Below are positions 7,672-29,100 of a stretch of 64,000 nucleotides of DNA, piece after piece. Numbering within the stretch: the stretch's first letter is position 1; each line of letters begins with the position of its first letter. The notes beneath the pieces are model-generated. The model saw only the letters and a program-made list of their open reading frames with translations, was not told the DNA's origin and did not search any database. Origin of the DNA: a candidate division FCPU426 bacterium (GTDB lineage: Bacteria; Oederibacteriota; Muellerivitia; Muellerivitales; Muellerivitaceae); assembly GCA_963771075.1 (NCBI GenBank), contig CAVYSE010000007.1, forward strand, positions 192,001 to 256,000, written 5' to 3'. The position numbers and the translations under genes are program-made.

Positions 7672-7941
7672 TTGAATTTAATCAATTTTATGGAAGAAGC
7701 CGTCCTGAAAACCCTCGATGAAATGTTATCCGAACCGTCTTATTCGGATTTTAAACCCTCCGAAAAAGAGAAGCTGGATGTCATGGCGATCACTTTAAAC
7801 CGGGTTCCTCCTCGTTATATTGTGTCCGATAGAGGTCATTTATTCTCCCGCGTGGAAGAACTACGCCAACAGTTTAAAACGGATTTGTTGGTGGAATTGA
7901 CACGCGCCATTGAACAGGTCAGAAAGAATCCACGGGGTTAA
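7672..7941 (+). CDS. ComFB-family (late competence development / cyclic-dinucleotide-binding) protein
   Basis: N.MEE.V ... DVMAITLNRVPPRY ... A...V..NPR signature. TTG start at 7672 after an AGGA RBS. Confidence 0.85.
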   Translation: MNLINFMEEAVLKTLDEMLSEPSYSDFKPSEKEKLDVMAITLNRVPPRYIVSDRGHLFSRVEELRQQFKTDLLVELTRAIEQVRKNPRG

Positions 7942-7942
7942 A

Positions 7943-8290
7943 TTGCAAACTGAACAAAACATCCTTTTAAAAACGATTGTTGAGGCGATAGGGAACAAAA
8001 AGGGTTTCGACATAAAAAAAATGCATGTGAAAGACCTGGTGAACTACGCGGATTATTTGATTTTATGCTCCGGAGCCTCGGACCCGCAGGTCAGGGCAAT
8101 CGCGGATGAAATAGAATCGAAGGTAAAAGAATCGACAGGCTCGCGGCCGATCTTGAACAGAAAAGACATCAATTGGTATGTGTTGGATTATATCGATGTC
8201 GTTGTTCACATTTTCAAGCCGGAATCAAGAACTTATTACGATCTTGATACTCTTTGGATCGATGCCCCGCAGGAAAAAATGAACGTTTGA
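7943..8290 (+). CDS. rsfS: Ribosome silencing factor RsfS (Iojap)
   Basis: KKGFDI, ADYLILCSG, WYVLDYIDVVVHIF, RTYYDLDTLW. Confidence 0.93.
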   Translation: MQTEQNILLKTIVEAIGNKKGFDIKKMHVKDLVNYADYLILCSGASDPQVRAIADEIESKVKESTGSRPILNRKDINWYVLDYIDVVVHIFKPESRTYYDLDTLWIDAPQEKMNV

Positions 8291-8398
8291 AAAGTGGTTT
8301 GTGGTAGAAAAAATAAATATTTCTCACCGTTCGTTTACCGCCACGACCTTAACCCACGCCTCTTACTACAGTGACCTAATTTCCTAACATGACCTTGT

Positions 8399-10159
8399 CT
8401 ATTTCCAGTTAATGACCAATACATCGTAATACTTCAGGTTTTTCACCTTCATGACTAATTGGCCGTTGGAAAAGGAAAAATCAACCTTTTGCTTTTTTGG
8501 GATATCCGGTGAAACCATTTCAACCGATGCCGGATCGGCCGGGGCGGCCAAAGTGACGGTGAAATCGGACTTAGGTAATATCCGCTTGTCGTAATTGTGG
8601 TTGATGAGGTGCAAGAGCGACCTTTTCCGCCCGGTTTGGTCCATGAGGTTGGTTTCGATTTGGCCGGCGTTGACGATCGCGCCGGTATGGGTGTCGGTAG
8701 TCTCCTTAACTAAATAAAGATCACGGTTTTCCTTATAGAACTGGGCGTACCGGGCGAGAAAATCCATCACGCCCGACTTGGTCGCGCTCGGCTCCATGTC
8801 GTAACAGACCCGCAGGTGGAAGGCGTAAAACAACCCGCAAGCGTAGGCTTCCGGCGCGTAGATCTGCCAGAAATCCTCCTTCTCATTCCTCGGCAAGGCG
8901 TAATAACGGCTGATGAAAGTCGTCGGCCAGTCAAGGAACAACACCAGGGGCACATGGCCCGCCACGGCCTGGTTGCGCTGGTAGAGCGACTTGAAGATCT
9001 TTTTCAACGATCGGGAGCCATCCAGGTGGCCGTCCCCTGTTACGGGCATGTAGTCCGCTTCCTTGCCCCCGTCGTCGTCACGGTTGTAGTTCCAGAGCCC
9101 AAACTCGTTGAAGTCCACGTAGGGGAAGAGGCCGTTGGCCGTCACCAGGATTTCCTTATGATACTTTTCCCGCGCGTACCGGCGCGTTTCCACGACCATT
9201 TGCTTCCAATACACCCGGAAGGCCTTGTCGAGGAAATCCGGGTCGTCCAGGCTCAGGCGCGAGGAGGCGGGGAAGGCCCCCCATTCCGCCGCCAGCGGGT
9301 TCGCGGAGCAATTCTTCCCGCCCCAGCCCCTGTTCCTCGGGTCCGTGGCCCAGTCGTGTGCCTGCAGGTATTTGCGGTAATTGAAATTGCGTTTCAGGTC
9401 GCTGGCTCTCACGCCGCGTTTAATCACGTTGTCCCGGGTCATCTGGAACTTTTTGATCCAGTCCGCCTCGCGGTACCGGGGGTACTTCTCCATCAGGTAC
9501 CGGTTGAAGTCGGCGATGAAATAGTCGTCAAACCCCTCGTTCGCGTTGAAGTGGTATTTGGCGTTGCCGTAATAGCCGTCCGCGTCCATCTCATCCACCA
9601 CGATGCCGTCCGCCCCCAGGTCGATCTGCATGCGGATCTTTTGCATCAAATGTTCCTGGTAATTCGGGTTCGCGACCGAGGCCCTTCGCATGTTTTTGCA
9701 GGCGAAGTTGTCGCACTCCAGGTGCGTGACGGGGTTCCCCTCCGCGTCCAATGTGGACCAGTCCTGGAATTCCTTGTCACCCGCCGCGTCGCTGGCGTAT
9801 ATCGCGGACCCGTTCAGGCCGCCCATGAAGAGGATGTGCTTTTCATGGCATTTGTTCAAAAAGCCCAGGTTGTACCGGGAGGCCGGCGTATTGTCCGTCC
9901 AACCGGCGTGCCAGCCGCGCATGACCAGGTCCGGCACGAGTTTTTCGTAAACCTGCGGGTCGTCCTCATCGGGACCGTCATGGGAAAAACCGTATACGAC
10001 GACATTGCTCATATCAAAATGGCCGGACGCGTCCCCAGTATCGTCAAATAGTGTTTTTGGGGGGGAGGATTTCCCATCGGCGGATTGCGCGAATAGGCCA
10101 ACCGCGAAGACCGGCATCAAGAGGACGCAACAAACCAGCGCGAATATATTATTTCTCAT
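8399..10159 (-). CDS. Secreted putative glycoside hydrolase (TIM-barrel-like catalytic domain plus C-terminal beta-sandwich)
   Basis: Signal peptide; S..NPNYQEHL...IDLGADGIVVDE; C-terminal LLHLINHNY...SPD...YYDVLVI. Visibly higher GC than neighbours. GH family not assignable by eye. Confidence 0.6.
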   Translation of the reverse strand: MRNNIFALVCCVLLMPVFAVGLFAQSADGKSSPPKTLFDDTGDASGHFDMSNVVVYGFSHDGPDEDDPQVYEKLVPDLVMRGWHAGWTDNTPASRYNLGFLNKCHEKHILFMGGLNGSAIYASDAAGDKEFQDWSTLDAEGNPVTHLECDNFACKNMRRASVANPNYQEHLMQKIRMQIDLGADGIVVDEMDADGYYGNAKYHFNANEGFDDYFIADFNRYLMEKYPRYREADWIKKFQMTRDNVIKRGVRASDLKRNFNYRKYLQAHDWATDPRNRGWGGKNCSANPLAAEWGAFPASSRLSLDDPDFLDKAFRVYWKQMVVETRRYAREKYHKEILVTANGLFPYVDFNEFGLWNYNRDDDGGKEADYMPVTGDGHLDGSRSLKKIFKSLYQRNQAVAGHVPLVLFLDWPTTFISRYYALPRNEKEDFWQIYAPEAYACGLFYAFHLRVCYDMEPSATKSGVMDFLARYAQFYKENRDLYLVKETTDTHTGAIVNAGQIETNLMDQTGRKRSLLHLINHNYDKRILPKSDFTVTLAAPADPASVEMVSPDIPKKQKVDFSFSNGQLVMKVKNLKYYDVLVINWK

Positions 10160-10237
10160 GAATACCTCGCAAAATTCGACTATTTATTAGACGGCAGGAA
10201 TCAGAAAGTGTCGTGAACGAAGGAAGTTCCCGCGAGC

Positions 10238-10263
10238 AAATAGGTGCCTGGCCAATATTATCC
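10238..10263 (+). repeat. Boundary motif copy A1 (AAATAGGTGCCTGGCCAATATTATCC)
   Basis: 22/26 identical to 22634-22659. Core shared with 12347-12375 and 20125-20153. Confidence 0.7.
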
Positions 10264-10319
10264 CTTTCCCCTGTCAAACCCAGTTTCCCGCCTTGGTTAA
10301 CTCAAAAATATTTAATGGG

Positions 10320-10330
10320 GGCCTGACCCC
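10320..10330 (-). repeat. Boundary motif variant B1 (GGGGTCAGGCC on the minus strand)
   Basis: 10/11 match to 12473-12483. Lies 7 bp beyond the ParB-like stop and is inverted relative to A1. Confidence 0.5.
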
Positions 10331-10337
10331 GAATTCG

Positions 10338-11945
10338 CTAGAGCCCATAGGCCAGGCCCACCACCAAGGCGATTCCCACCACGCCCTGGGCTATTTTCTT
10401 GGCGGGCTTGCCCACCACCTCCCCCAAGAGCCTCAGGGTGGCGTTCAAGGCCTTTTTCAGGTGTCGCCCAACCCAGCCGATGGACTTCTTGGCCGGGGGC
10501 CAGGTTGTATGCCAAGTCCAATGCAAGATCCGGCCAAAGAAGGCCGCCACCAAGAACAGCTTTTCCCAGAGGGTGAGGTCTTGCCTCGCTTTGATCTTGG
10601 CCCGGATGGCCTTGATCCAGGGGATGCCAGCCATGGTGCCCCAAAACACCGACTGGTCGTCGCTCTCAAGGCGACGGCCATGACCTGTCTGTGCCGATAC
10701 CATAGAGGTATCGGTGCGAGACTCACCAGGTTCTGTTTTAGATCCTGGATGGATTGTTTCTGCCGTATCGGATGGGGCTGTTTCCCCCGGCAATGGTTCG
10801 GACGGTTGGACCCCCTCGACTTTGGGGGAAGTGATTGGGGTTGGGTTGGGTTTTTCAGAATTGACAGGGGGGTGAGCTGATCGGGCACCTGGGTCCGTCT
10901 GGGTGGATTGTGTACCCATACCTTGTTTGGGTTTGGGTACACCCACGGCATGTCCCTCACCTTGCGGGTTTGGAACAGGGGCTTTTAAGGCCTTTATGAA
11001 CACCGCTACCTTCTGGGGGGTGTAATCCTCAGGCCGGTAACCGGCCTTAATCCAATTGATGTAGTTCTTGACCTGGGATTCAGTCATCTGTTCATCAATA
11101 GCCATCTGGAGGGCCTGGTAAACCTTGTCTTGGGTTTCGGAGGGGATGGGGGGGTAGGGCCATAATTTGGGAGGTTCGAGACCCTCGGCTAGGGCTTTTT
11201 GTCTTGCCCCCGGTTTATTGGTAGATTCAGGACCTAAACCGCCCAATCGAGAGAAAGCAATTTCTGAATTTCCCTTATTTTTAGTGGCCGTATTACGGCC
11301 AATCAAATTCCTCGATTTTTCGCTTAAAAGTGGTAATAACCCCAGAGCCCGACTTATCTTTTCACGGTCAAAACCTAAACGATCCTTAATGCGCCTCGTT
11401 GTTGCGTACGGATTGGCCCGGATCAGGTTTTCGATGGCCTGGTAGTCGGCAAACCAGCCCTTATCTACCTTCTCGTTATCCTTGTGGGTGTAAACCGCCG
11501 CGTCTTCATCGTTTAGGACCTTAATTACGCCCCTAATTGTCGGCCATTCAAGTTTCTCGGCCCCAAGGGTACGCAGATGCCCCCCCAAGATCTCAAAGTT
11601 GAAGTCATCCAGCTTCCAGGGCCTAATCACCTGGACCGAAGCCTCAAGCTGAGGTCCACTCTTTAGTTGAGCCGGTTCAATAGGTAAACCGGCAACCCCG
11701 AGGCTGGGGTCCGTAGGATGAAGCTGAACCCCATTCACCAGGGGCTGGGTGGGGTGGGGGCGGACCGTTATGGCATTCAAAAGGCCGTTTTCTTTCAGGT
11801 CCTCCGCCATCTTATCGATCTGTTCTTGGGTAAAGGCGGGCCCTGGATTGTAGGGGTTAGGCTTGATGTTTTTGAGGGGAATTGGTTGTTCGCCAGGGAA
11901 CAACTCAGGCAAAAGAGCTAATACATCTTCGATAGAAACGGACAC
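10338..11945 (-). CDS. ParB/Srx N-terminal-domain protein with HTH, Pro-rich linker and C-terminal hydrophobic helices (possibly truncated)
   Basis: IKPNPYNP...GLLNAITVRP...FEILGGHLR ParB motifs; HTH TTRRIKDRLGFDREKISRAL; terminal GVVGIALVVGLAYGL. Confidence 0.75.
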   Translation of the reverse strand: MSVSIEDVLALLPELFPGEQPIPLKNIKPNPYNPGPAFTQEQIDKMAEDLKENGLLNAITVRPHPTQPLVNGVQLHPTDPSLGVAGLPIEPAQLKSGPQLEASVQVIRPWKLDDFNFEILGGHLRTLGAEKLEWPTIRGVIKVLNDEDAAVYTHKDNEKVDKGWFADYQAIENLIRANPYATTRRIKDRLGFDREKISRALGLLPLLSEKSRNLIGRNTATKNKGNSEIAFSRLGGLGPESTNKPGARQKALAEGLEPPKLWPYPPIPSETQDKVYQALQMAIDEQMTESQVKNYINWIKAGYRPEDYTPQKVAVFIKALKAPVPNPQGEGHAVGVPKPKQGMGTQSTQTDPGARSAHPPVNSEKPNPTPITSPKVEGVQPSEPLPGETAPSDTAETIHPGSKTEPGESRTDTSMVSAQTGHGRRLESDDQSVFWGTMAGIPWIKAIRAKIKARQDLTLWEKLFLVAAFFGRILHWTWHTTWPPAKKSIGWVGRHLKKALNATLRLLGEVVGKPAKKIAQGVVGIALVVGLAYGL

Positions 11946-11961
11946 AGGGGACTCCTAATAC

Positions 11962-12040
11962 CAGTCGATAGCCCGCAGTCCGCAGTCGACAGCCAGCCTT
12001 TAAGGCCTAACTGCCGACCGTCGACTGTCGACCGCCGACT
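11962..12040. repeat. Inverted array of degenerate 7-bp repeats (5 x CAGTCGA-like, spacer, 5 x TCGACTG-like)
   Basis: CAGTCGA TAGCCCG CAGTCCG CAGTCGA CAGCCAG / CTAACTG CCGACCG TCGACTG TCGACCG CCGACT. Confidence 0.75.
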
Positions 12041-12346
12041 TATGGGATTCTCCCCTGGGTTGAAAATAAATCGATCCCATTTTTGAATCAATTGGAAAAA
12101 CGTCTGAAAGCGAATTTTTGGGTGGGGAACAGGCCTAAAGTGTCAAAATCGGTCAATAATGTTGCGGTTTTTCTGCCGTTTATGGTCTGCGAACTGTCTC
12201 CTGCCTCGAACCTTCAAGGTGAGAGGCGTGGTTTGGTGATCCCAATTGCCATGAGCTATTGGGGCGAACTGTAAACTGATTTCCTGAAGGGCGCCAGGGA
12301 GATTCCAGGAGTACGATGATCAATGACTCCAGGGGAATGAACGGCT

Positions 12347-12375
12347 TAAAGTGTTGAATGTTGGCCAGGCGCCTT
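12347..12375 (-). repeat. Boundary motif copy A2
   Basis: TAAAGTGTTGAATGTTGGCCAGGCGCCTT is 26/29 identical to the reverse complement of 20125-20153. Confidence 0.8.
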
Positions 12376-12472
12376 TTTTCTTCTTCGGCCGTGGGGAACC
12401 GGATAGCGATAATAAAGAAGCGGATGGAGGGAGAGACGCGGTTCAAGGCCCGGATAGATAATATAAAATAAA

Positions 12473-12483
12473 GACCTGACCCC
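12473..12483 (-). repeat. Boundary motif variant B2 (GGGGTCAGGTC on the minus strand)
   Basis: 10/11 match to B1; immediately upstream of the Fic operator region. Confidence 0.5.
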
Positions 12484-12510
12484 AATGTTCTTGGTATTTT
12501 AGAAAGTTAT

Positions 12511-12580
12511 CTTTTAATAACGTTATTGATTATTAAAGGTTGAGTCGCTATCCTTTAATAACGAATCGGCTTATTAAAGG
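12511..12580 (+). promoter_or_regulatory. Tandem palindromic operator, 2 x CYTTTAATAA-N9-TTATTAAAGG with 41-bp period
   Basis: Sites at 12511-12539 and 12552-12580, directly upstream of the Fic start. Confidence 0.75.
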
Positions 12581-12592
12581 ATGGGTTTAAGG

Positions 12593-14101
12593 ATGAAAAG
12601 AAGCACCGGGTATTACGAAACATGCAGTACGGCGGGTGAAAGCTTCAAGGCTTTCATTCCATCGCCCCTTCCCCCCACCCCCCCTCTTGAGTGGACCCCC
12701 AAGCTCCATAGTCTCATGGAAAAGGCAAACCAAGCCGTAGGTCGATTGGATGGCTTGAGCCATTCATTACCTGATGTATCGATTTTTCTATATTCCTACA
12801 TTCGAAAGGAGGCCATCCTTTCCAGCCAGATCGAAGGTACACAATCCTCATTTTCGGATCTTCTTAAGTTTGAGGACAAAGAAACCCCCGGAGTTCCCTT
12901 GGATGATGTTCAAGAGGTTTCCAACTACGTCGCGGCCATGAATCATGGATTGAAAAGATTAAAGGACGGGTTTCCCCTGTCCCTACGCTTGATAAAAGAG
13001 ATTCATGAAATCCTTCTGACCAAAGGCAGGGGTAGCACAAAGATGCCCGGTGAATTTCGCCGGTCCCAAAATTGGGTCGGCGGTAGCCGCCCAGGAAACG
13101 CTTCTTATGTTCCTCCCCCTCCCAATGCAGTGCTAGCCTGTTTAGGGGACTTGGAAAAATTCCTGCATCAGCCCAAAGAGAGCGTGCCCGTATTGGTAAA
13201 AGCGGCACTCAGTCATGTCCAATTTGAAACAATCCATCCCTTTTTAGATGGAAACGGAAGGTTAGGTCGTTTACTCATCACCCTCTTGTTATGTGTCGAA
13301 GAGGTTTTGACAGAGCCTATCCTATATCTCAGTCTTTACTTCAAGACCCATCGAACCGAGTACTACGAAAGGCTCAGCGCGGTTCGGGCTAAAGGAGATT
13401 GGGAAGGTTGGTTGGAATTTTTCCTAAAGGGGGTTTCAGATACGGCTGAAACGGCCTCGGAAAGCGCACGACAAATCCTTCGGTTATTTGACAAGGACCA
13501 AGCCTCGATTGCAAAGTTAGGGCGAGCGTCAGAGTCCGCATTACGAGTGCATCATTTCATGCGGAAAAGACCGCTTGTCTCAATTGCGACAATAGCAGAA
13601 GGTTTAAAAATGACATTCCCTACCGTAAACACTTCATTAAAGCATCTTGTTAACCTGGACATTGTCGAAGAATCGACCGGCAGGAAGAGAAGCCGACTTT
13701 TTACATACACAGCTTTTCTTGAAATATTGAACAAAGGGACCGAACCAATTCTCTTTTCCGATTTTGGAAATATTCAAACAAAGCTTGAACCTGTCTTTTT
13801 CCATTTAGGAAAAAGGTTTAAATCGATGAAGTTTCCAATTTCAAAGCAAGATTATCGTTGGCACATCGACAGCATGAGCGACACTTTAGTACTCTGGGTC
13901 GATCAAAAGAATGGTTTGCAAACTTCTAAACAACCAATTGAAATTGAATATAGTTTTTTGATGGATGGAGGGTTTCTGACAGAAAACGGAATTTATCTAA
14001 AAGGAATTGAAGTGGCTTTCGACCGTTGGATTCCGCTCATAAAAGCATTTAAAAACAAAAAAATAACTTCGTCTTCAAAACCAAAGAAAAAAAATGCCTA
14101 A
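12593..14101 (+). CDS. Fic-family protein (N-terminal Fic_N, Fic domain, HTH) with an extra C-terminal segment of about 115 aa
   Basis: EAILSSQIEGTQ, PGEFRRSQNWVG, catalytic HPFLDGNGRLGR, wHTH-like region. Alternative ATG at 12581. Confidence 0.92.
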   Translation: MKRSTGYYETCSTAGESFKAFIPSPLPPTPPLEWTPKLHSLMEKANQAVGRLDGLSHSLPDVSIFLYSYIRKEAILSSQIEGTQSSFSDLLKFEDKETPGVPLDDVQEVSNYVAAMNHGLKRLKDGFPLSLRLIKEIHEILLTKGRGSTKMPGEFRRSQNWVGGSRPGNASYVPPPPNAVLACLGDLEKFLHQPKESVPVLVKAALSHVQFETIHPFLDGNGRLGRLLITLLLCVEEVLTEPILYLSLYFKTHRTEYYERLSAVRAKGDWEGWLEFFLKGVSDTAETASESARQILRLFDKDQASIAKLGRASESALRVHHFMRKRPLVSIATIAEGLKMTFPTVNTSLKHLVNLDIVEESTGRKRSRLFTYTAFLEILNKGTEPILFSDFGNIQTKLEPVFFHLGKRFKSMKFPISKQDYRWHIDSMSDTLVLWVDQKNGLQTSKQPIEIEYSFLMDGGFLTENGIYLKGIEVAFDRWIPLIKAFKNKKITSSSKPKKKNA

Positions 14102-15264
14102 TTATGATTTTAAATCCCTCTCAGACTACGAATTTGAGTTATTGGTCAGAGACCTTCTTCAGGAATATTTAAAGTTACCATTAGAAAACTTTACTCGCGG
14201 GCGCGATAAAGGAATCGATCTAAGATACAGTCGAAATAAGAAAAACAACATAATAGTCCAATGCAAACATTACAGTAGCTTTCCAAAATTAATTCATCAT
14301 CTTAAAAAAGAAGAAATTGATAAAGTCCGATTGTTAAATCCCGGACGTTATATCTTCGCAACCTCTTTAGGTTTAACCCCGTCAAACAAAGATGACATAG
14401 CGAATATTTTTCATCCCTACATTAAAAACTTTGATGATATTTTGGGCAACTCAGCATTAAATAAATTGTTGGGAATGTATTCCGATGTTGAAGAAAATAA
14501 TTTTAAACTTTGGCTTACTAGTAAAGCGGTTCTGGATAGAGTTCTAAAAAGTGATATTTTCGACAGAAGTAATATTGAAATAGAAAAAATTAAAACCAAA
14601 TTAAAACTCTACGTTCCCAATAAAAGTCTTCCCAAAGCCCAAAAAATACTTAAAAAATATCATTATTGCATTATTGCGGGCTTACCCGGAATTGGCAAAA
14701 CCACCTTGGCTCAAATCTTACTTATCAAATATTTGAAAAAAAAGTACAAGGTTGTAAAAGTATCCAAAAATATTGATCAAGCTTGGTCGGTCGTTAATTC
14801 TTCGGAAAAAATTATTTTTTATTACGATGATTTCCTCGGAACTTCTATCTTGGAAAATAAATTGAGCAAAAACGAGGATCGCGGGATTCTTGATCTAATC
14901 GATCACGTGAAAAGATCCAAAAACAAAAGATTTCTTCTCACCACAAGAGAATACATACTCAGTCGTTCAAAAGAGATTTACGAGAGTTTTGCCAATTCGG
15001 ATTTTGATAATAATAAATGTATTGTCGACCTGAGTGACTACACTTATTTCATTAGAGCAAATATATTTTATAACCACATTCTTTTTTCTAATGTTCCTGC
15101 GGAATTCAAAAAGTCAATTTTGAAGAATGATAATTATTTAAAAGTTATTAAGCATGAGAATTACAACCCTCGAATAATTGAATGGGTTACTGATTTTGAT
15201 CGGATAAAAAAAATTCCCGGAATAAACCCTAACAATTACTTCGAAAATGTGATGCATACTTTAT

Positions 15265-15824
15265 CAAAACTGCCAGAAAACCCCAGGCTTTTAAGCCTGG
15301 GGATGAATGGCTGCCCGGAGGGCCGACTGATTTTGTCGGTCCGCAGGCCAGGGGTTATGGCATGCTCTGGTGATGGGAAACTATTGGACTGGAGCACATA
15401 CCAAGCACCGACTGTTGTATCACTTGGTTTGGATACCCAAGTATAGGAAACGAATTCTACTGGGCAAAGTGGTTGTTCGCTTAGACGAACTATTTCGTGA
15501 AGCAGCCCACGTCAACCGGTGGGTAATTCGTGAGTTGAATATTCAACGGGACCATGTCCATATGCTGATTCAAGTTGAACCAAGGGTGAGCGTGGCAAAA
15601 GTAGTACAAGTTTTGAAAGGTGGGACGAGTATCAAAATAAGGCGGGAGTTTCCAGAACTGGAAGAGTTTTTGTGGGGTGATAGTTTTTGGGCGGACGGCT
15701 ACTTTGCGGAAAGTATTGGGACGGTGCAAGAAGAAATGATTCGTAAGTATATCCGCGAGCAACAGCGTGACCAGAGTATGCCGAAGGGCAGAAACCCCGG
15801 GCTTTAGCCCGGGGAGAGCTTCAT
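15265..15824 (+). mobile_element. IS200/IS605-family element carrying tnpA only (560 bp)
   Basis: Subterminal hairpins CCCCAGGCTT-TT-AAGCCTGGGG (15281-15302) and CCCCGGGCT-TT-AGCCCGGGG (15795-15814). Inserted 3' of TTTAT, ends in TTCAT, no target duplication. Junction is ambiguous by 1 nt. Confidence 0.92.
15373..15807 (+). CDS. tnpA: Y1 HUH transposase (IS200-like TnpA)
   Basis: YHLVWIPKYRK, DHVHM (HUH), LKGGTS, FWADGYF, catalytic YIREQ. Confidence 0.95.
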   Translation: MGNYWTGAHTKHRLLYHLVWIPKYRKRILLGKVVVRLDELFREAAHVNRWVIRELNIQRDHVHMLIQVEPRVSVAKVVQVLKGGTSIKIRREFPELEEFLWGDSFWADGYFAESIGTVQEEMIRKYIREQQRDQSMPKGRNPGL

Positions 15825-16997
15825 TGCATCCCCATGAAATTTGGAAACATCCTTTTGAGCAAATTTCCAGGGCTTCCAGAAATTTATTAATAACCTTGAC
15901 CACACTGCCCACTGAAGTTTATTTGGAAGATTTAGAAAATGCATTTTCCAAGTTCCATTTCAATCAGTCAAAAAAACATAGTTTTTCTACTTCCGATGAA
16001 GACTTTAATAAATCCCTCAAAGAACTTGAGGGTAATTTTATTAAAACATCAAAATATGATTCGGGAATAGTTGTTAAATTTTTTAATCCTTCTATCAATG
16101 ATTTTTTGGATAACTTTATAATTAGTCATAAAGCAACATATCTTTCATTGCTTGAGTCGTCTTTATTTTTTGAACAGATTGAAAAATTAATTTCTCTTTC
16201 TTTCACAAAAAACCCCTCCCTTTTCATTTATATCCAGACAACTTTCAACGCTTTCATCGGCGCAATAAATGAAACCATATTTTCAAAAGGTTGCAGATTG
16301 ATAAACGTTCGTTATTACAATAACAAAATGGATCTCAGACGCTATTCCGAGCCCTTAGAAGGAAGGTTGCTTTTCTTGTTACGTATGTTGCATGAAAAAA
16401 TAAACAGAGAGAATACAGAGCTATATTTATCTAATTTTCAAGAATGGACATGGAAATTAGTCGATGGTATTTCTATCGAAAAATATTCCAGACCAATATT
16501 AATTGGTCTGCTTAATTACATAAATAAAATTAAATTCGACTCCAAATTGAAGGATATTCTTTTTTACGAATCCAAAAAATATTTAAAACGTTTGGTCAAA
16601 GAAAGTCCTGAGATTGAATACTTTGAATTATTTTCTGAATTTGAAAAGAATTTTCCGGAGTACTTATCTCAAGAAGAACGCAAAGAATTGATTGGCAATT
16701 TTGAATCTTATTATGAACTAAATATTGAAAATTGGTTGCAAGGGGATAGCAGCGATCAAATGATGGATACCGCATCTAACTTGGAAAAAATAACAGAAAA
16801 TTTAAAAGTCACCCCGGACTATAGAATATCCGCTTTGGAAGAAGCGGCAGAAAAGATTATGAACGAAACATCCGAAGTGGAAGAAGAAAATGTTTCTATT
16901 TCAAAAGAGGCCGTTTCAAAAATAGAAGACGACGAAAAAATTAAAAATCTCTTCGACACATTAAATCTTCCTTCCTCAAAATAAGAGAAAAGATCAT

Positions 16998-17249
16998 ATG
17001 TCTAAAAAATCAAAACCAAATCCCAAAAATCTCGTTATAACCTATGCCAACCTCTGCCAAAGATTAACCTCTATCAATTCCCTACTTCCCGACCTAGAGA
17101 AGGTAATGCCTAAACTAAGGGAATACTTCAAGTGGACCAGGGAAAACTATAACCAAATGGACGCAGAAGCCAAGCGGACGGTCGGCGCGATTCCCCATTT
17201 GGAAGTGGAACTTTGGGTAGCCAAAATCTTTAATGAAAATATTAAATAA
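16998..17249 (+). CDS. Small hypothetical protein (83 aa)
   Basis: ATG 13 nt after the STAND gene stop, same strand; no recognisable motif. Confidence 0.55.
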   Translation: MSKKSKPNPKNLVITYANLCQRLTSINSLLPDLEKVMPKLREYFKWTRENYNQMDAEAKRTVGAIPHLEVELWVAKIFNENIK

Positions 17250-17260
17250 GCACCGAAGTC

Positions 17261-17605
17261 CTACTTAACCCGCATCAATGTCGAATGCTCCACAATCCAC
17301 TCATCCAACAACTGCTTAGGTATTAGGATCATGCGCCGCTTGTTTTCACTTTTAACCACCAGTTTGACGGCGGGAAAGTGGGTTTCCGGTTGGGTGTGTA
17401 TCCAGTCATAAACGGTTGAGGCAGGAATGCCGTATAGCCTTTCAATGTCGTTTGGGCGAAGAAGTATTGGGTTTTCACCCCGCAGTCCAAAAACAACATC
17501 ATGCGAAACAGGCTTTTCCCCAAATGGGAGGGTGTAAGTTGCCTGAATGGGTACATCTTCCGGGATTGAATTAGTAGTTCCTTTTTTCAAATGGATTCCT
17601 TTCAA
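17261..17605 (-). CDS. Excisionase/AlpA-like helix-turn-helix protein
   Basis: LLRPNDIERLYGIPASTVYDWI...FPAVKL...ILIPKQLLDEWI. Confidence 0.7.
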   Translation of the reverse strand: MKGIHLKKGTTNSIPEDVPIQATYTLPFGEKPVSHDVVFGLRGENPILLRPNDIERLYGIPASTVYDWIHTQPETHFPAVKLVVKSENKRRMILIPKQLLDEWIVEHSTLMRVK

Positions 17606-17858
17606 AGTATCTTTTTGGGGGGAAAGCCTCCCCCCTGGCCTCGGCTACCTTCGGTGATCCTCGACACACCCCTTTCCCCTGGGGCTTTGCCCCAAGCCTT
17701 TTTTACCGCACGTAAGAAATGACTGAAAGTTGGGCATTAATAACTCATAATTGGATTGAGTGGTGGGGAAAGGTCACTTTATTTCCAAGACATCTTGAGT
17801 GAAGCCTTGCCAAAGCCCCTTATTTTATTTATTTCCTTTTGAAAGTTGAGAGCGCTCA

Positions 17859-18107
17859 ATGGATAAAAATCAAAGAGTTGTGCTTTTTTCAACGTATATA
17901 TTGGTTCTCTTTGGAATTCTTTATTTTAATACCAAGCAATTTATACCTTCTGAGCAACACGAAGTAATTATCCTTTCTTCATTATTGATGCTTTCATTTA
18001 CCGTTTTATTTTTGGAGCATTTTTTTACACGACCGACAGATGTTTTGGCTTCCACAATCTCAATTTTGCTATTACTTGCCCCCATAAAAGCGCAACTGAG
18101 TAAATTT
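17859..18107 (+). pseudogene. N-terminal fragment of a multi-pass membrane protein, truncated by IS256
   Basis: Three hydrophobic segments and LEHFFTRPTDVLA; frame runs into the IS end at 18108. Confidence 0.7.
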
Positions 18108-19465
18108 GCCCGCGTCAAGAATTTGGGTGTAAATTTCCACGGGCGCCTGGATCAAGCAGCTTGAGCTTCTGTCTCCTTTCTTGAGGTGTGGACTTTAAGT
18201 CTATTCCATCTTTGTTGTTGGGCATCTGCCACTGCCCAAACCAATTTGGTTAATTCCAATTCATTTTGCATCATCCCCGCCGGCCTCAGCCTTCTCCTCA
18301 GCTCCAGATTGAACCTTTCTATGAGATTGCTGGAACGGGTGATGAGCCAGAACTTAGGGTCTTCCCGAAAAAATTGGGTGTAGGAGTCAAATTTTTCTGC
18401 CGTCATCTCCACGGCTTTGGGATAGGTCTTGGACCACCTGGCTTTGAGGCTTCCCAAGGCCACCAAGGCTTCTTCTCGGCTCTTGGCCCAATACACCGCC
18501 TTGAAATCCGCCATGAAGGCCTTTTGGTCCTTCCAGGCTACCCGGAAACGGACGTTCTTCATCTTGTGTACGACGCAAAGCTGGTGGGTTACTCCCAAGC
18601 GTTTTTCGACCGCCGCGATAATCCCGGCATGGGCGTCGGACACCACCATCCTCAAACTTTTCCTGTCCAAGCCTCGGTTCAACAGGTCTTCCAGCATGGC
18701 TTCCCAAGAAGCCTCGCTCTCCCGGTCTCCCACTAAGTACCCGAGAAAATGCCGTTTCAGGTTTCCGTCCACCCCGATAGCCACCAGTAAGGCTTGTTTT
18801 ACCCCTGTCTCCTGACGCCTGACCGTTAGGTAAAGCGCATCCAGGTACAGGTATCGGATCCCTTCGGGTAAGGGCCGCTTTTCCCATTCCCGCAACGTGG
18901 GTTCCAAGGCATTGGTCATCTGGCTAATGTGGCTGGCCGACCATTTCGTTCCAAAGGCCTCGTTCATCCCTGCCGCTACCGACCGGGTAGAAGCCCCTTT
19001 CAGCCAGAAATTCATTCCCAGATAACTCATCAGGGCTTGGCTGCCTTCCCTCAAGGCCTTCAAAGTCTCGGAAACGAACCCTTTGCCCTTCCTCAAAACA
19101 GGCTTTCTCAATGCCAACCGGCCTAGAAATCCAGGCACGAAAACCTGTTTGAAACCATTACGGTAACGAGGTTTTTCCTGCCTTTCGTAGGGTTGACTAC
19201 CTAAGAACTCGTCCCGTTCCTTCTCCAACTGGGCATTGAAGGCCTCGGATAGCTGTTGGTTGAGAGCCTCCCCGACCCATTGGCCGATCTCCCGGCTCCC
19301 GACCGCCGACTTGACCATGGCTTGGGTTTTCTCCCTTGCCAAGGCCTGCAAGGCTAGGTGTATATTCTTCATGGGCGTAACGTCCTTTCACTAAAAGGAT
19401 ATGGTGTCCTGAACAAACACCATGTTACGCCCGCTTCCTTTTACACCCTCCTAATTTACGCGGCC
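18108..19465 (-). mobile_element. IS256-family insertion sequence (1358 bp)
   Basis: Imperfect terminal IRs GCCCGCGTCAAGAATTTGGGTGTAAA and (revcomp) GGCCGCGTAAATTAGGAGGGTGTAAA. No flanking direct repeat (GTAAATTT vs GACTGTTT). Confidence 0.88.
18152..19372 (-). CDS. IS256/Mutator-family DDE transposase
   Basis: YRNG, YLYLDA, VVSDAHAG, QLCVVHK, RSSNLIERFNLELRRR. Confidence 0.95.
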   Translation of the reverse strand: MKNIHLALQALAREKTQAMVKSAVGSREIGQWVGEALNQQLSEAFNAQLEKERDEFLGSQPYERQEKPRYRNGFKQVFVPGFLGRLALRKPVLRKGKGFVSETLKALREGSQALMSYLGMNFWLKGASTRSVAAGMNEAFGTKWSASHISQMTNALEPTLREWEKRPLPEGIRYLYLDALYLTVRRQETGVKQALLVAIGVDGNLKRHFLGYLVGDRESEASWEAMLEDLLNRGLDRKSLRMVVSDAHAGIIAAVEKRLGVTHQLCVVHKMKNVRFRVAWKDQKAFMADFKAVYWAKSREEALVALGSLKARWSKTYPKAVEMTAEKFDSYTQFFREDPKFWLITRSSNLIERFNLELRRRLRPAGMMQNELELTKLVWAVADAQQQRWNRLKVHTSRKETEAQAA

Positions 19466-20116
19466 GACTGTTTTGGGCAAAGAATGAAGGTAACACAAGA
19501 TAAAATTTTTATGGTTTGTGACTATCGAAACGAGGTTATTTATATTGACAAAAATTTAACTTCTGCAAAAAAAATTCCAATCCCAAATGATTTTAAGGCG
19601 TCACAATCAAAATTTGAGGATGGGGTTATTTATAGAAATGAATTTGATAAACGGCCCGGTGAAAGAGAATATGTGTTTGATGAGGACGAATATAAGAAAG
19701 CGGGAAAACCAGAAAAGTGGAAAAAATTAAAATCAAAAATCGATTATGTTAAGAGATTCACACCTCAAGGTGAAATCCTCTATTTAAAAAAAGCAAGTGG
19801 AGAATTAACGAAAATTTGGGAATCGGACGGTTCGCCCGCACTTAATATATTAAGGATCAGCGATGAAACGATACGTGAAGTTTATTTCAACATATCACTG
19901 TATTCAGCCGATCATAATAATATTGGAAATTCCATTCTTTTGAAAGTTAGCCCTGAAGGAACGATATTAACACAAATGATTTTTCAGCCGGATGATGTGG
20001 TTGATACTTATGGCGGAGCTCGGACGATCCCATTGGATGTGGATAAAAACGGGAACATCTACCGGATGAGGACAAATAAAGATGGCGTTTTGATTGATAA
20101 GTGGTCTGAACAATAA
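19466..20116 (+). pseudogene. C-terminal fragment of an unrelated (beta-propeller-like) protein with its 5' end removed at IS256
   Basis: Open AT-rich frame starting exactly at the IS end; ends DVDKNGNIYRM..DGVLIDKW. Confidence 0.6.
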
Positions 20117-20124
20117 TAGGAACC

Positions 20125-20153
20125 AAGGGGCCTGGCCAACATTTAACACGTTA
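20125..20153 (+). repeat. Boundary motif copy A3
   Basis: AAGGGGCCTGGCCAACATTTAACACGTTA, inverted partner (26/29) of 12347-12375; begins 8 bp after the upstream stop. Confidence 0.8.
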
Positions 20154-20587
20154 GGACTTTCCACCCTCCAACGAATTAAATTGAAAGATTAAAACCTATT
20201 CAGGCGGGTGCCCTATGACATTCAAACCAAACCAGGAAGTTTACTCCACGAAAGTTTGGTGGATCGGCCGGGTGATTTATTTGCCTGTTGCGGTCACTGA
20301 TGAAATCGCACCGCCAAACCTTACCCCCCCGACTTGACCAACACCTATAGGGAATACCAAGTTAGTCCTTAGCCCCGTGAGCCCCTGTCAAATTGGCCGT
20401 ACGCCCCCCTTTTTGAGGTTAAATTCTTACAAATCCATCCGATTTACCTGTTTGTGCTCGTTTTTTGAGTGAATTAACTCCGTTGAAAAACCAATGTTAA
20501 ATTTTATTGATTGCCCCCTGTCTATTTTAGGAAAAAATGATAATGATTGCGTTTAACCAAAGGGAATAACGTTAAAGGGGGGGGCGA

Positions 20588-21640
20588 ATGACTGATTTCG
20601 TTTTGGGTTCATCCCTCCAGCCCCTTGATGACCTGGAACAGCTTCAGGTTCAAAAGACCCTACTAATACAGGAACGTATTCCCACCGACCGGTGTGACCG
20701 GATCATTCGCCTGACGGAGAACTTGTTTCGGGTGCCTCTCGCCTTGATCTACCTGACCGATGAAAACCGGGTTTGGTACAAATCCAACGCGGGTTTGGCG
20801 CTGATGGATTTATCCCATGAAATGGCCTTTTGTGCCGAAATGATCCACCACCCCGGGACGCTGGTTGTTTCAGACCTGCGGCGGGACGCCCGTTTCATGA
20901 ATGTTCCCATGATGAAGGCGGAAAGGCCCTTTTGTTTTTTCGCGGGCGTACCCGTGAACACCGGTAACGGGGAACGGTTGGGAACCCTCTGCCTGTTGGA
21001 TACCCAGCCGAGGGCTTTTTCCCGGGAAGACCAGGTGAGCCTGGAAGACCTGGCCGCCCTCGTGGAGATCGAGTTGGGGGCGGAAAGGGTCAACCAGCTT
21101 CAGTTCAAACTGCTCCTGGAAATAGGCCAACTGCGTTCCCAGGCACTGGTGGATTCCCTGACCCGCCTCTGGAACCGGGGCGCGGTGCTGGAAATCCTGG
21201 AAATGGAACGGGGCCGGGCGAAACGCAAGGGCCATTCGTTGGGCGTGGTGATCGCCGACCTGGATTTTTTCAAGAACGTGAACGACCAATACGGCCACCC
21301 CATAGGGGACGCGGTTTTGCTTGAAACCGCGGTGCGGATCCGCAAGAACCTTAGGGATTCGGATTGCGCCGGCCGCTACGGCGGGGAAGAGTTTCTGGTG
21401 ATCCTTCCGGAAGTTGACCTGGCCCAGGCCCGGGTGATCGCCGAGCGAATCCGGGGTTCCGTGGAGGATGCCCCCTTTATCACGGCCCGGGGGCCACTGA
21501 GGGTAACCCTGAGCCTGGGGTTGGGTGTGTGGCCACCGGGGGAAGAACTGACACTTGCGACCCTGATCGCCGAGGTGGATAAGGCCCTTTACCGCGCCAA
21601 GGCGGAAGGCCGCAACCGGGTCTGCGTTTTTACGGATTGA
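20588..21640 (+). CDS. GAF-GGDEF diguanylate cyclase
   Basis: GAF (FFAGVP..GTLCLLD), DSLTRLWNR, DLDFFKNVND.YGH, I-site RDSD, active site GGEEF. Confidence 0.95.
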   Translation: MTDFVLGSSLQPLDDLEQLQVQKTLLIQERIPTDRCDRIIRLTENLFRVPLALIYLTDENRVWYKSNAGLALMDLSHEMAFCAEMIHHPGTLVVSDLRRDARFMNVPMMKAERPFCFFAGVPVNTGNGERLGTLCLLDTQPRAFSREDQVSLEDLAALVEIELGAERVNQLQFKLLLEIGQLRSQALVDSLTRLWNRGAVLEILEMERGRAKRKGHSLGVVIADLDFFKNVNDQYGHPIGDAVLLETAVRIRKNLRDSDCAGRYGGEEFLVILPEVDLAQARVIAERIRGSVEDAPFITARGPLRVTLSLGLGVWPPGEELTLATLIAEVDKALYRAKAEGRNRVCVFTD

Positions 21641-21818
21641 TCCTTTGAATTTTCCGGTGCCGGTCATTCACTTGGGCTCCTAAATGACAAGATTGTCCGG
21701 GGCTGATCCGCTTCTACGATTATGTGCGTAAAAAGATACCTGGCTGGAGTTCCCCCGAAAAAATGGACACCTAAGATATGTCGAACGGCGTTAGAACCTC
21801 TTCCATCCAGGCGCCTAT

Positions 21819-22520
21819 TCATCCCAGCAGGTCAAAGAATAGAAAATGCGCGTCCTTTCCAACATTCACTTCAGGTGATTCCTCTTGCGACAACGCCACC
21901 CCATCCCCGGGAGAAATCTTGTGGGGGCCGATCGAAAGCTCGCCTGAAGCCAATTGAAGCCAACCCTTGCGGTCTTTTGGCAAAGGCAATTTCACCTTTT
22001 CGCCCGCTTTCACTTTCGCCAAGTAGAAAAGTACATCCTGGTTGAAGGTGATGGAACCTTCCTTCCCGTTTGGGGAAGCGGCCAGGAAGAGCTTGCCTGA
22101 GGCGAGTCCCTTTGAAAAATCCTTCTGGGCATAGCTTGGTTTCAGGCCCTCTTTTTCAGGCAGGATCCAAATTTGGAAGAAATGGGTTTCTTCCTCTTTT
22201 AAATGGTTGAATTCTGAATGCCGTACGCCCGTCCCGGCGCTCATGCGTTGCACTTCTCCGGGAAAAATAGTGGCGGCCGTACCCATGGAATCCTTGTGGT
22301 CCAGGGCGCCGCATAGGACATAGGAGATGATCTCCATATCCCGGTGGCCGTGTGTCCCAAAACCCGTCCCGCCTTGGATGCGGTCTTCGTTGATAACCCG
22401 CAAATCGCCGAATCCCATTTGGGCTTCATCGTGGTAATCGCCGAATGAGAAGGTGTGTTGGGAATGGAGCCACCCCAGGTCGCTGAAGCCCCGTGCCCCT
22501 GATTTGCGGAGAGTCATCAT
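21819..22520 (-). CDS. Pirin-family bicupin (YhhW-like)
   Basis: WLHSQHTFSF, GFGTHGHRDMEI, HKDSMG, MSAGTGVRHSE. Confidence 0.95.
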   Translation of the reverse strand: MMTLRKSGARGFSDLGWLHSQHTFSFGDYHDEAQMGFGDLRVINEDRIQGGTGFGTHGHRDMEIISYVLCGALDHKDSMGTAATIFPGEVQRMSAGTGVRHSEFNHLKEEETHFFQIWILPEKEGLKPSYAQKDFSKGLASGKLFLAASPNGKEGSITFNQDVLFYLAKVKAGEKVKLPLPKDRKGWLQLASGELSIGPHKISPGDGVALSQEESPEVNVGKDAHFLFFDLLG

Positions 22521-22633
22521 GGTTACTTCCTTTCCATCCAGGGATTAAGTCGGGCTTTATCCTAGGAAAAGATGGGTGAGAAAGTCAGGGGGGCGGGGGA
22601 AAAACTCGGTGTACAAAGCGTATATGGGATAGA

Positions 22634-22659
22634 AAATGGGTGGCTGGCCACTATTGTCC
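22634..22659 (+). repeat. Boundary motif copy A4 (AAATGGGTGGCTGGCCACTATTGTCC)
   Basis: 22/26 identical to 10238-10263. Confidence 0.7.
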
Positions 22660-23194
22660 ACTTTGCAAATGAACAAAATCATTAAACCCTCATCCCAATG
22701 GCCAATAACCATTTGTTAGGAACAACCACCTGTTGAGTCTTCGCCTCAAGGGCGACAAAAACCATCGAAACATGGTTCTCGACCAGAAACCTCAAGCCGG
22801 CCCCAAACTTTTTATAATTCCTAACTAATAACTTTTTGCTACCGCATTGAATATTAACCTCGTCCATTTTTTGGTCAAAACGTCCATAAACTGAACTTTT
22901 TCCTAAAAATACAGTTCAAAAAATTGATGATTTACCACAAAAAGTGTTGAATTATTGGCACATGCTTTGCACAGAAATATAAATAACTCTGCTTTTACTT
23001 GGAAAAATCTAAAAAGAGCTATAATTCCACAAGGTTAATCGGTTGCCTGTTTAACGATTAAACAGCAATTTTTGGAGTTGTTTTTGGAATTACCTGTAAA
23101 AACTTTTTGTTTATCTAAAGCTGAAAAGCCTGAACACCTACATTCAAATCAAAATGAAAGTAGTGGTTATATTTGTTTGCCCTGCCATGATTTT

Positions 23195-26100: not shown

Positions 26101-29100
26101 CCAGTACCTATACCTACACTATTACCCTTACACCGACCTTCACGAACACTTACACGAACACGATCACCCTTACCCCGACTGTAACCAATACCTATACCAA
26201 TACGATTACTCTTACTCCTACGGTGACGAACACCTATACCAACACCATTACGCTTACTCCAACAGTGACCAATACCTACACCAATACCATCACCCTTACG
26301 CCCACGGTCACGAACACCTACACCAATACGATTACTCTTACCCCGACGGTGACAGACACCTATACAAACACAATCACCCTCACGCCCACAGTCACGAACA
26401 CATACACCAACACCATTACGTTGACGCCCACCGTGACGGACACTTACACAAATACCATTACCCTCACACCCACAGTCACCAATACCTACACCAATACGAT
26501 TACTCTCACTCCTACAGTAACGAACACATATACCAACACCATTACGCTTACTCCAACTGTCACGAATACTTACACAAACACGATCACCCTCACGCCCACA
26601 GTCACGAACACCTACACCAACACCATTACGTTGACGCCCACTGTGACGGACACTTATACAAATACCATTACGCTTACGCCGACAGTCACTGATACCTACA
26701 CCAATACGATTACGCTCACACCTACGGTCACGAACACTTACACGGATACCATCACCCTCACGCCCACGGTCACAAACACCTTTACCAACACCATTACGCT
26801 TACGCCGACAGTCACAGATACCTACACCAATACGATTACTCTCACACCTACGGTCACGAACACTTACACCAACACCATTACATTGACCCCCACAGTTACA
26901 GACACTTACACCAATACTATTACCCTTACTCCAACAGTGACCAATACCTACACCAACACCATTACTCTTACTCCAACAGTAACGAACACTTACACGAATA
27001 CAATTACCCTTACCCCGACGGTGACAAACACCTATACGAATACCATCACCCTCACGCCTACGGTGACGAACACTTACACAAACACAATCACCCTTACCCC
27101 AACAGTGACCAATACCTACACGAATACCATTACCCTCACCCCGACTGTAACAAACACCAATACCAACACCATTACCTTGACGCCGACAGTGACCAATACC
27201 TACACGAATACGATTACTCTCACACCTACGGTAACGAACACTTACACGAACACGATCACCTTAACCCCGACTGTGACAGACACCTACACCAATACCATTA
27301 CTCTCACTCCTACAGTAACGAACACTTACACGAACACGATCACCTTAACCCCGACTGTCACCAATACTTACACCAACACCATCACCCTTACGCCTACTGT
27401 GACCAATACCTACACGAATACCATCACCCTCACGCCCACAGTCACGAACACCTACACCAATACGATTACTTTAACGCCGACAGTAACGAACACTTACACG
27501 AACACGATCACCCTCACCCCGACTGTAACAAACACCAATACCAACACCATTACCCTGACGCCGACAGTGACCAATACCTACACGAATACGATTACTCTCA
27601 CACCTACGGTAACGAACACTTACACGAACACGATCACCCTCACCCCGACTGTGACAAACACCTATACCAACACCATTACGCTTACGCCTACGGTGACCAA
27701 TACCTACACCAATACGATTACGCTTACTCCAACAGTGACCAATACCTACACGAATACCATCACCCTCACCCCGACAGTGACAGACACCTACACCAACACC
27801 ATTACGCTTACGCCTACCGTGACGGAAACTTACACGAATACCATTACACTCACGCCCACAGTCACAAATACCTACACCAACACCATTACGCTTACGCCTA
27901 CGGTGACCAATACCTACACCAATACGATTACGCTTACTCCAACAGTGACCAATACCTACACGAATACCATCACCCTCACCCCGACGGCGACAAACACCTA
28001 TACCAACACCATTACCCTCACTCCTACGGTGACGAACACTTACACGGATACAATTACGCTTACCCCGACAGTCACTAACACCTACACCAATACAATTACT
28101 CTCACTCCTACGGTTACGAATACCTATACGAATACCATCACCCTCACGCCCACAGTTACGAATTCCTACACGAATACTATTATCTCACACCTACGGTAAC
28201 GAACACTTACACGAATACAATTACCCTTACCCCCACAGTGACAGACACCTACACCAACACCATTACGTTGACGCCCACCGTGACGGATACTTACACGAAC
28301 ACGATCACCTTAACCCCGACTGTCACCAATACTTACACCAACACCATTACCCTGACGCCGACAGTGACCAATACCTACACGAATACGATTACTCTCACAC
28401 CTACGGTAACGAACACTTACACGAACACGATCACCCTCACCCCGACTGTGACGGACACCTACACCAATACCATTACTCTCACTCCTACGGTAACGAACAC
28501 TTACACGAACACGATCACCTTAACCCCGACTGTCACCAATACTTACACCAACACCATTACCCTGACGCCGACAGTGACCAATACCTACACCAATACGATT
28601 ACTCTCACACCTACGGTAACGAACACTTACACGAACACGATCACCCTCACCCCGACTGTAACAAACACCAATACCAACACCATTACCCTGACGCCGACAG
28701 TGACCAATACCTACACGAATACGATTACTCTCACACCTACGGTAACGAACACTTACACGAACACGATCACCCTCACCCCGACTGTGACAGACACCTACAC
28801 CAATACCATTACTCTCACTCCTACGGTAACGAACACTTACACCAACACGATCACCTTAACCCCGACTGTCACAAATACTTACACCAACACCATCACCCTT
28901 ACGCCTACGGTGACCAATACTTACACGAATACGATTACTCTCACACCTACGGTAACGAACACTTACACGAACACGATCACCCTCACCCCGACTGTGACAA
29001 ACACCTATACCAACACCATTACGCTTACGCCTACGGTGACCAATACCTACACCAATACGATTACGCTTACTCCCACAGTGACCAATACCTACACGAATAC

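Follow-up and report, generated by a model that had tools for sequence, protein, structure and literature searches.

How did a 14-kb block of unrelated genes come to lie between rsfS and a very long adhesin gene in the genome of a candidate division FCPU426 bacterium (GCA_963771075.1)? The block is contained in a 64-kb stretch of contig CAVYSE010000007.1 (hereafter the window, G000:C7:192001-256000, where G000 is the source genome, C denotes its contigs, and G001 and so on are relatives). A sequence-only reading of this stretch had taken ten copies of a short motif for the boundaries of integron-like cassettes. By their sequence, six of these motifs are 26-bp terminal inverted repeats (TIRs) of TIRtrons, elements of the TIRYT type (RAYT subclass 2.1), orphaned at this locus. 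We conclude that the insert is probably a mosaic with orphan TIRtron ends, and that TIRYTs encoded elsewhere in the genome likely produced its joints in successive single-end events. The region is, accordingly, a known type of element with new footprints, not an integron.

The six ends, named by their first G, are 10243(+), 10330(-), 12373(-), 12483(-), 20127(+) and 22639(+), three on each strand, and all are intergenic or located at a gene break (Table 1). The matrix used to score them has 26 positions and derives from 30 distinct strings that neighbour TIRYT genes in other genomes; one or two of these strings are not true ends. The six ends take ranks 1-6 in the window, and the seventh site scores 9.6; in the shuffled genome, the same matrix yields no sites at 18 or above and 38 sites at 13.2 or above. 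A separate matrix derived from the source genome's own gene-flanking ends strongly recovered four of the window sites. The 10-mer core alone matches four of the six ends and occurs 112 times in the genome. The core GGGG(A/T)(C/G)A(C/G) fits ends 10330 and 12483, and the other four (10243, 12373, 20127 and 22639), the 'strong' copies of the sequence-only reading, carry T at position 7 (T7) and deviate at 2-4 of the first 8 positions. The right end at 12458-12483 belongs to a TIRYT family with intact copies, in which inverted repeats flank a RAYT-like Y1 gene. The four other proposed sites (8369-8382, 12125-12135, 17765-17775 and 20393-20405) did not hold up: they score -3.9, 2.1, 1.7 and -4.2, values at which 14-109 chance sites occur per 15 kb, and the 12125 stretch is part of a conserved leader of the ParB-like gene that is also present, without a junction, at C19:86872-86943.

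Neither palindromy nor a GTAG tag, the test for REP/REPIN sequences and RAYT groups 2 and 3, was found in the ends. The inner half of the repeat moderately resembles a DnaA box, with 16 of 48 distinct ends at most two mismatches from TTWTNCACA, compared with 10% after shuffling. A likeness to Xer/dif and attC sites was considered and dropped after the TIRs were identified. A transcription-factor site at a fixed promoter position was not borne out (neighbouring genes point away in 35 cases and towards in 34, at scattered distances), and an outward promoter was rejected, given no excess of promoter-like sites and no rule of orientation or distance. The GG marks the outer tip of a TIRtron; therefore, what GG faces in the earlier remark on the cargo is flanking DNA to which an end has been joined.

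The genome contains 20 Y1_Tnp hits, namely, three IS200 copies and 17 RAYT-like genes of the TIRYT type, 12 of them full-length open frames. The TIRYT genes, all outside the window, are framed by five inverted-repeat families starting GGGGTCAG, GGGGCCAG or AGGGTCAG. Three expectations of the sequence-only reading are supported: that the motifs are terminal repeats of a RAYT-like Y1 enzyme, that such a gene flanked by the motif exists elsewhere in the genome, and that the enzyme would act in trans. The TIRYT protein combines a Y1_Tnp domain (1.8e-12), with conserved H-x-H and Y119, and a C-terminal Bac_DnaA_C domain (3.6e-9); a Y1 domain followed by a DnaA-type helix-turn-helix (HTH) is described as the signature of subclass 2.1 (PMC6006769). 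The Y1 core shows a weak match to 4ER8 (E 0.03). The IS200-type gene in the window was rejected as a candidate partner enzyme: it has no C-terminal domain, and the motif frames none of its three copies. Within families, most pairs of TIRtron copies are 98.6-99.8% alike, three pairs with one decayed copy are 90% alike, and the TIR3 pair is 74% alike by ungapped comparison; the near-identical copies suggest recent activity. The ends are not, as had been supposed, special to this locus: 85 strong ends (21 at TIRYT genes and 64 orphans) are scattered over the genome, and 73% of the orphans have another end within 5 kb, compared with 16% at random.

Several arrangements of TIRtron copies and ends were observed besides. 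One TIRtron each in L055 (G012) and L069 (G010) has 15 or 6 outer bases in common between its two ends, inverted, as if the flank of one end were a copy of the other. L081 (G018:C64), L082 (G002:C12) and G000 C21:73012-77530 contain TIRtron-cargo-TIRtron arrays in which the copies point in the same direction and lie 2.5-5 kb apart. All nine copies of an element that we take, from its protein, to be IS110-like directly follow CCTGA, eight of them within recognisable TIRtron repeats, and its far side is CCCC or CTCC in six copies; this element appears to target TIRtron ends.

The module breaks are located at the motifs, as the sequence-only reading had proposed. In the window, the ParB-like gene is broken at 10339, 8 nt outside the 10330 end, a base past which all 11 of 11 paralogous stretches continue, and the TIRYT gene fragment is broken 10 nt outside the 12373 end. 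Among 157 loosely defined ends across the genome, chance matches included, flank homology stops within 80 nt at 39; 12 of these share the end itself, and in 23 of the 27 others the break falls on the outer side of the first G, at a distance of 4-15 nt, compared with 11 of 51 breaks from 3000 random sites (Fisher p 1e-7). The outer break distance of T7 ends, 9-10 nt, is like that of canonical ends, and loci fetched from G001, G014, G018 and G040 show a similar distance of 5-13 nt. Copies of a single end share 5-10 A-rich outer bases, nested in G018, as if part of the donor flank travelled with the end. No target duplication was seen in 21 elements (mean shared word of 4.1, compared with 4.4 for mismatched pairs), and partial tandem duplications begin at many ends. 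A spacer that always starts with G, corresponding to a C-ended donor strand, was considered and rejected (14 of 23 junctions, p 0.17). At 10339 in the window and at C3:103815, TIR ends break ParB-like paralogues one base apart and keep opposite halves; the halves best match different paralogues, and the pair could represent one split gene or a target hot spot.

Copied cargo that starts at an end was seen as well. The likeness of the ParB module to C1 begins 9 nt outside the TIR; it alone among the modules of the window has a second copy that can be traced, with one original end. An ORF6N piece shared by C11 and C27 (611 bp, 98%) starts 6 nt outside an end, and a ParB piece shared by C3 and C11 (1113 bp, 92%) behaves similarly. 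In G014:C7, two TIRtrons pointing in the same direction enclose 2553 bp that were copied, at 97.9%, from a region that is unbroken in C6; the cuts lie 7 nt from either end and sever a response-regulator gene. In G040, a 4.26-kb transposase-free unit, carrying a membrane protein of the ParB-like gene family without ParB_N, lies between inward T7 ends and is missing from that site in G042. Also in G040 (L145:5235-5441), the 3' end of a cytochrome c assembly gene recurs as an 81% copy, which lies 6 kb from the complete gene and stops at a distance of 8 nt outside a T7 end. In the source genome, 15 of 23 ParB-like family loci have an end within 1.5 kb, compared with 1.5 expected at random and a maximum of 6; the 23 loci are matches to eight family queries and probably include the chromosomal parB. 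The arrival of the GH-like (glycoside hydrolase-like), Fic/defence and DGC (diguanylate cyclase)+pirin modules by TIRYT we only infer.

A likely position of the cut is suggested by short tandem duplications at the junction, found at 10 of 156 distinct ends; in seven the duplication terminates directly behind GGGGTCA, and in an eighth it runs one base further. The lower strand at this stop reads CC^TGA, given as the type I cut motif of the Escherichia coli TnpA-REP (PMC3333891). Beyond the directly observed motif identity, breaks, lack of target duplications and copied cargo, we infer every step of the TIRYT chemistry. With the C-terminal DnaA-type HTH bound to the inner repeat half, the lower strand would be nicked at CC^TGACCCC by the HUH/Y1 core; from the free 3' end, host synthesis would then run across the repeat and into 5-15 nt of flank. 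If this end rejoined in place, tandem duplications such as those observed would result; if it joined a distant site, a new junction that carries this spacer would form, and the neighbouring DNA would be deleted, duplicated or captured. Repeated single-end events could produce deletions, duplications and element-cargo-element arrays, an outcome that would be closer to IS26 cointegration (PMC8477213) or IS-adjacent deletion (PMC11708052) than to integron recombination.

We advance an extended version of this proposal only tentatively and regard it as doubtful. In it, TIRYTs would be active enzymes of the HUH type, picking up host genes and spreading them by single-end nick-extend-join, with a CC^TGA nick, a 5-15-nt flank and no target duplication. 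The T7 repeats would be the dedicated cargo ends of a transposase-free family that usually carries a membrane-anchored ParB-like gene and re-enters the rsfS-adhesin gap in different genera. A family thought to be largely domesticated would then provide a route of gene capture outside the DDE, tyrosine and serine recombinases. A T7 cargo-end variant was not found in passages of PMC3733652 and PMC6006769, the figures or supplements of which may list T7 repeats.

Among the alternatives, passive debris survives best, although we consider it unlikely. TIRtrons might insert as ordinary insertion sequences (IS) in a tolerant region, with deletions and homologous recombination leaving orphan ends among genes that arrived by other means. 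The clustering of ends described above, the sharing of regions between ends and IS200, IS256 and IS110 copies, and homologues of the GH-like gene and pirin that occur elsewhere without ends all fit such a history; in particular, the TIR motif is absent within 1.5 kb of the 80%-identical homologue of the GH-like gene in G001, and no ends were found near GH and pirin homologues in relatives. However, random decay would not explain why 23 of 27 breaks fall outside the GG at a distance of 4-15 nt, why a 2.55-kb chromosomal piece is severed 7 nt from the end on both sides, or why a 98.7% duplication starts 9 nt outside an end.

A dedicated integron-like platform behind rsfS, in which paired sites define cassettes that can be excised and shuffled, is very improbable. 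The independent insert of G004 in the same gap (ParB-like gene, ORF6N gene and GGTGCCTGGCC end) and the Fic/defence block, enclosed by two ends that face it (12483 to 20127) in a genome with no IntI, would suit a platform of this kind. However, of the four modules that had each been described as enclosed by an inverted pair, only this one is, and its two ends belong to different subfamilies; the GH-like module has one end facing it (10243), as do the ParB (10330) and DGC+pirin (22639) modules, with the 12373 end reading into the ParB gene and the 20127 end into DGC+pirin. Moreover, the weak sites fail, breaks fall inside genes at variable distances, no rule of orientation or spacing is apparent, and similar mosaics occur at many loci. 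No circular cassette, reordering or excision was seen. Least probable of all is that the T7 ends form a separate non-autonomous element around the membrane-anchored ParB-like gene, moved by another enzyme and merely targeted by TIRYT ends: T7 ends never flank a TIRYT gene here, a gene of the ParB-like family lies no more than about 1.5 kb from 7 of the 17 T7 ends in relatives, and ends lie beside 15 of the 23 family loci, but T7 ends share positions 8-26 and the 9-10-nt outer break with TIRYT ends, and ends of several subfamilies lie at differing distances before ParB-like genes.

Joint formation by TIRYTs remains our preferred reading, and several observations weigh against it. The T7 substitution removes the lower-strand C^T of the proposed nick site. 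It is present at none of the 21 TIRYT-gene ends in the source genome, compared with 16 of the 64 orphans, so that for the T7 ends the TIRYTs are candidate enzymes; none of the 17 T7 ends in relatives lies within about 1.5 kb of a TIRYT gene, and the T7 ends GGTGCCTGG, GGCGCCTGG and GGGGCCTGG were not found framing a TIRYT gene in the source genome or relatives. The result that flanks rejoin elsewhere in the genome for 0 of 27 end pairs, some of which share an end and 17 of which have a flank traceable to the junction, speaks in favour, but the within-genome test behind it is blind to clean insertions into unique DNA. Non-matching flanks can also arise through later deletions or recombination between copies (PMC11708052), and the G014 copy, 2% diverged from its source, could come from another strain. 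Eight of the 23 ParB-like family loci in the source genome have no end, and several relatives carry ParB-like genes at varied loci without a recognisable end. Second copies of the GH, Fic/defence and DGC+pirin modules were not found in the source genome, nor was a whole copy elsewhere of any of its 20 intervals between outward-facing ends. Finally, no TIRYT biochemistry was found in the literature searched.

With respect to known systems, the insert shares with integrons and clusters of attC sites lacking integron integrases (CALIN) unrelated accessory genes with short conserved sites between them and an enzyme that is not adjacent. In contrast, the sites here are 26-bp non-hairpin repeats in mixed orientation, breaks fall inside genes, blocks comprise multiple genes, and no one-gene-one-site rule holds; the best hit to the integron integrase model TIGR02249 reaches 41.8 bits, against a cut-off of 265, in a genome that is 96.7% complete. 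IS26 uses a DDE transposase that cuts at the repeat tip and duplicates 8 bp, whereas here the enzyme is of the HUH type, no duplication was seen, and joints are found 4-15 nt beyond the repeat. What the two have in common, following the passages on IS26/IS6 in PMC8477213, are same-direction element-cargo-element arrays (in G014, G018, G002 and G000:C21), non-matching flanks and capture of neighbouring DNA. Cargo copied from elsewhere and placed between like elements, the pattern of composite or pseudo-compound transposons, occurs in G014; in the window, a second copy can be traced for the ParB module only, with its one original end. With the E. coli REPtron (TnpA-REP, PMC3333891, as far as described there), TIRYT shares the HUH/Y1 core, through the weak 4ER8 match, and the predicted cut in CC^TGA; unlike it, the elements here have linear inverted repeats instead of GTAG hairpin REPs, an extra HTH, and multiple mobile copies instead of a domesticated gene.

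The closest relatives are the TIRtrons themselves, described with TIRYT by Di Nocera et al. 2013 (PMC3733652) and corresponding to TnpA-REP subclass 2.1 of Quentin et al. 2018 (PMC6006769) and to RAYT group 1 of Bertels et al. 2017 (PMC5581495), an equivalence stated in bioRxiv 10.1101/2020.03.09.984088. The published passages agree with ours in the RAYT-like Y1 gene, the C-terminal DnaA-type HTH, inverted repeats starting GGGG(T/C)CAG and dispersed orphan repeats. They do not describe movement, breakpoints, spacer, cargo or cut site, whereas here we find recent and numerous copies, breaks at ends and copied cargo; the passages of Quentin et al. compare the GGGG core only, whereas we note a DnaA-box-like inner half. 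More broadly, no account of TIRYT movement, breakpoints, spacer, cut site or cargo capture was found in the literature, subscription journals being scarcely covered. Subclass 2.1 is reported as the second largest TnpA-REP-like group, present in 14.9% of strains (PMC6006769). RAYTs are generally read as domesticated, and group 1 is given a duplication rate of 6.3%, the highest among true RAYTs (both PMC5581495). A role of subclass 2.1 in lanthipeptide diversification was proposed in the bioRxiv study, which found no inverted repeats, and was later softened. If our reading is correct, TIRtrons would build accessory islands, including defence genes, and would be missed by IS annotation relying on target duplications. 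Their footprints can be tested in this genome family: the strand cut position, the joint distance outside the repeat, flank exchange and capture of chromosomal genes.

Table 1. Features of the rsfS-adhesin insert (window coordinates unless a contig or locus is given) and related loci
Feature	Coordinates	Strand	Details
rsfS	7910..8290	+	left anchor; Pfam RsfS
Possible decayed left boundary	8313..8362	+	82% match to DNA just inside TIR at C1:110394; own TIR not recognisable
GH-like gene, secreted, 586 aa	8399..10159	-	no Pfam hit; GH66/GHL10 leads only
TIR end, T7 variant GGTGCCTGGCC	10243..10268	+	matrix 13.2
88-bp mini-element	10243..10330	.	two inward-reading ends; like 83-423-bp internal-deletion derivatives elsewhere in genome
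Canonical TIR end GGGGTCAGGCC	10305..10330	-	matrix 30.7; 8-nt spacer 10331-10338 links to broken ParB-like gene
TIR-headed ParB cargo module	10339..12382	-	2018/2044 aligned bases equal C1:180851-182961 (98.7%)
ParB_N + membrane-segment gene	10339..11945	-	truncated at 10339
TIR end, T7 variant GGCGCCTGGCC	12348..12373	-	matrix 20.7; reads into ParB-like module; 10-nt spacer to broken TIRYT gene
Last 27 codons of TIRYT gene + right TIR (12458-12483, read on -)	12384..12483	+	93-97% to TIRYT 3' ends; translation; matrix 31.7
Fic gene	12581..14101	+	SoFic model spans residues 21-384
Restriction-endonuclease + nSTAND3 defence candidate (PDC-S73)	14094..16984	+	interrupted by IS200-type element
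IS200-type Y1 element	15260..15825	+	three identical copies in genome; not partner of motifs
HTH_17 gene	17261..17605	-	
IS256-family (Mutator) element	18109..19465	-	five further genome copies
orf252 piece	19466-20116		25% homologues at C6, C21, C23, each close to ParB-like genes or TIR ends
TIR end, T7 variant GGGGCCTGGCC	20127..20152	+	matrix 24.3; just past orf252 stop codons
GAF-GGDEF DGC	20588..21640	+	
Pirin	21819..22520	-	
TIR end, T7 variant GGTGGCTGGCC	22639..22664	+	matrix 14.2; last end before adhesin promoter region
IS110-like copies, G000	C3:101385, C11:540935, C18:92149/281545/283119, C19:78948, C21:10486, C26:76311, C28:111083		
ParB-like family loci in relatives	L014:1440-4326 (G004), L011:820-4878 (G002), L023 (G004)		

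The rsfS-adhesin locus was compared in ten relatives, one of the ten stretches falling on the wrong side. The adhesin gene directly adjoins rsfS in G002, G003, G014 and G018, which lack the 14-kb insert; a single different gene separates the two in G008 and G012, G006 and G015 have the rsfS locus without the adhesin, and G004 carries its own insert in the gap, described above. From this pattern of presence and absence, the region is therefore accessory. The insert comprises, in order, the GH-like gene, the ParB_N gene, Fic, the restriction endonuclease/nSTAND3 gene split by the IS200-type element, two small genes, the IS256-type element between two gene pieces that do not read through, the DGC and pirin, and the promoter region of the adhesin is conserved from about 23012. 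The sharp contrast in GC content between neighbouring modules noted in the sequence-only reading is real (0.31-0.59: GH 0.56, ParB 0.54, Fic 0.47, nSTAND3 0.32/0.31, orf252 0.35, DGC 0.59 and pirin 0.53, with 0.53 for the genome), as is the lack of an integrase in the window, in which IS200-type and IS256-type copies are nevertheless present.

Highly similar Logan contigs from four runs in three studies (24 of 178 loose ends listed) extend over GH, ParB, DGC, pirin, adhesin and the side of rsfS, and, among the matches listed, bridge the rsfS-GH, 10243 and 22639 junctions. Depth is almost nil over 12510-14313 and 16116-17317, and no contig spanning the Fic/defence block was found among the matches listed, which is no proof that the block is absent from those strains. 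Neither the 20127 end nor the rsfS end was matched in pattern scans of metagenomes, nor the nSTAND3 gene in a scan of a genome collection, nor T7 ends in genome and viral scans; all these collections may omit near genomes, and one scan for T7 ends missed a site found by another search. A phage origin of the ParB-like gene is unsupported, with three weak domain hits in viral contigs. This membrane-anchored family is multi-copy and occupies different loci in each relative, often together with ORF6N, toxin-antitoxin or SDR+TetR genes.

Other repeats were observed in and beside the insert. A 40-bp stretch between the DGC and pirin genes (21739-21780), presumably akin to an IS3-family end, is matched in at least seven relatives, and the two genes may be separate arrivals. 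The adhesin gene (23730-31945) is threonine-rich and repetitive, with a strong skew of C over G, and is divided into several frames, the breaks of which may be assembly errors. A GC-rich repeat at 17610-17700 has six more copies in the genome, several of them cut by IS256 ends or TIR ends, and a hairpin-rich dispersed repeat at 12184-12270 has about a dozen copies, four of them in tandem at C18:50682-50946.

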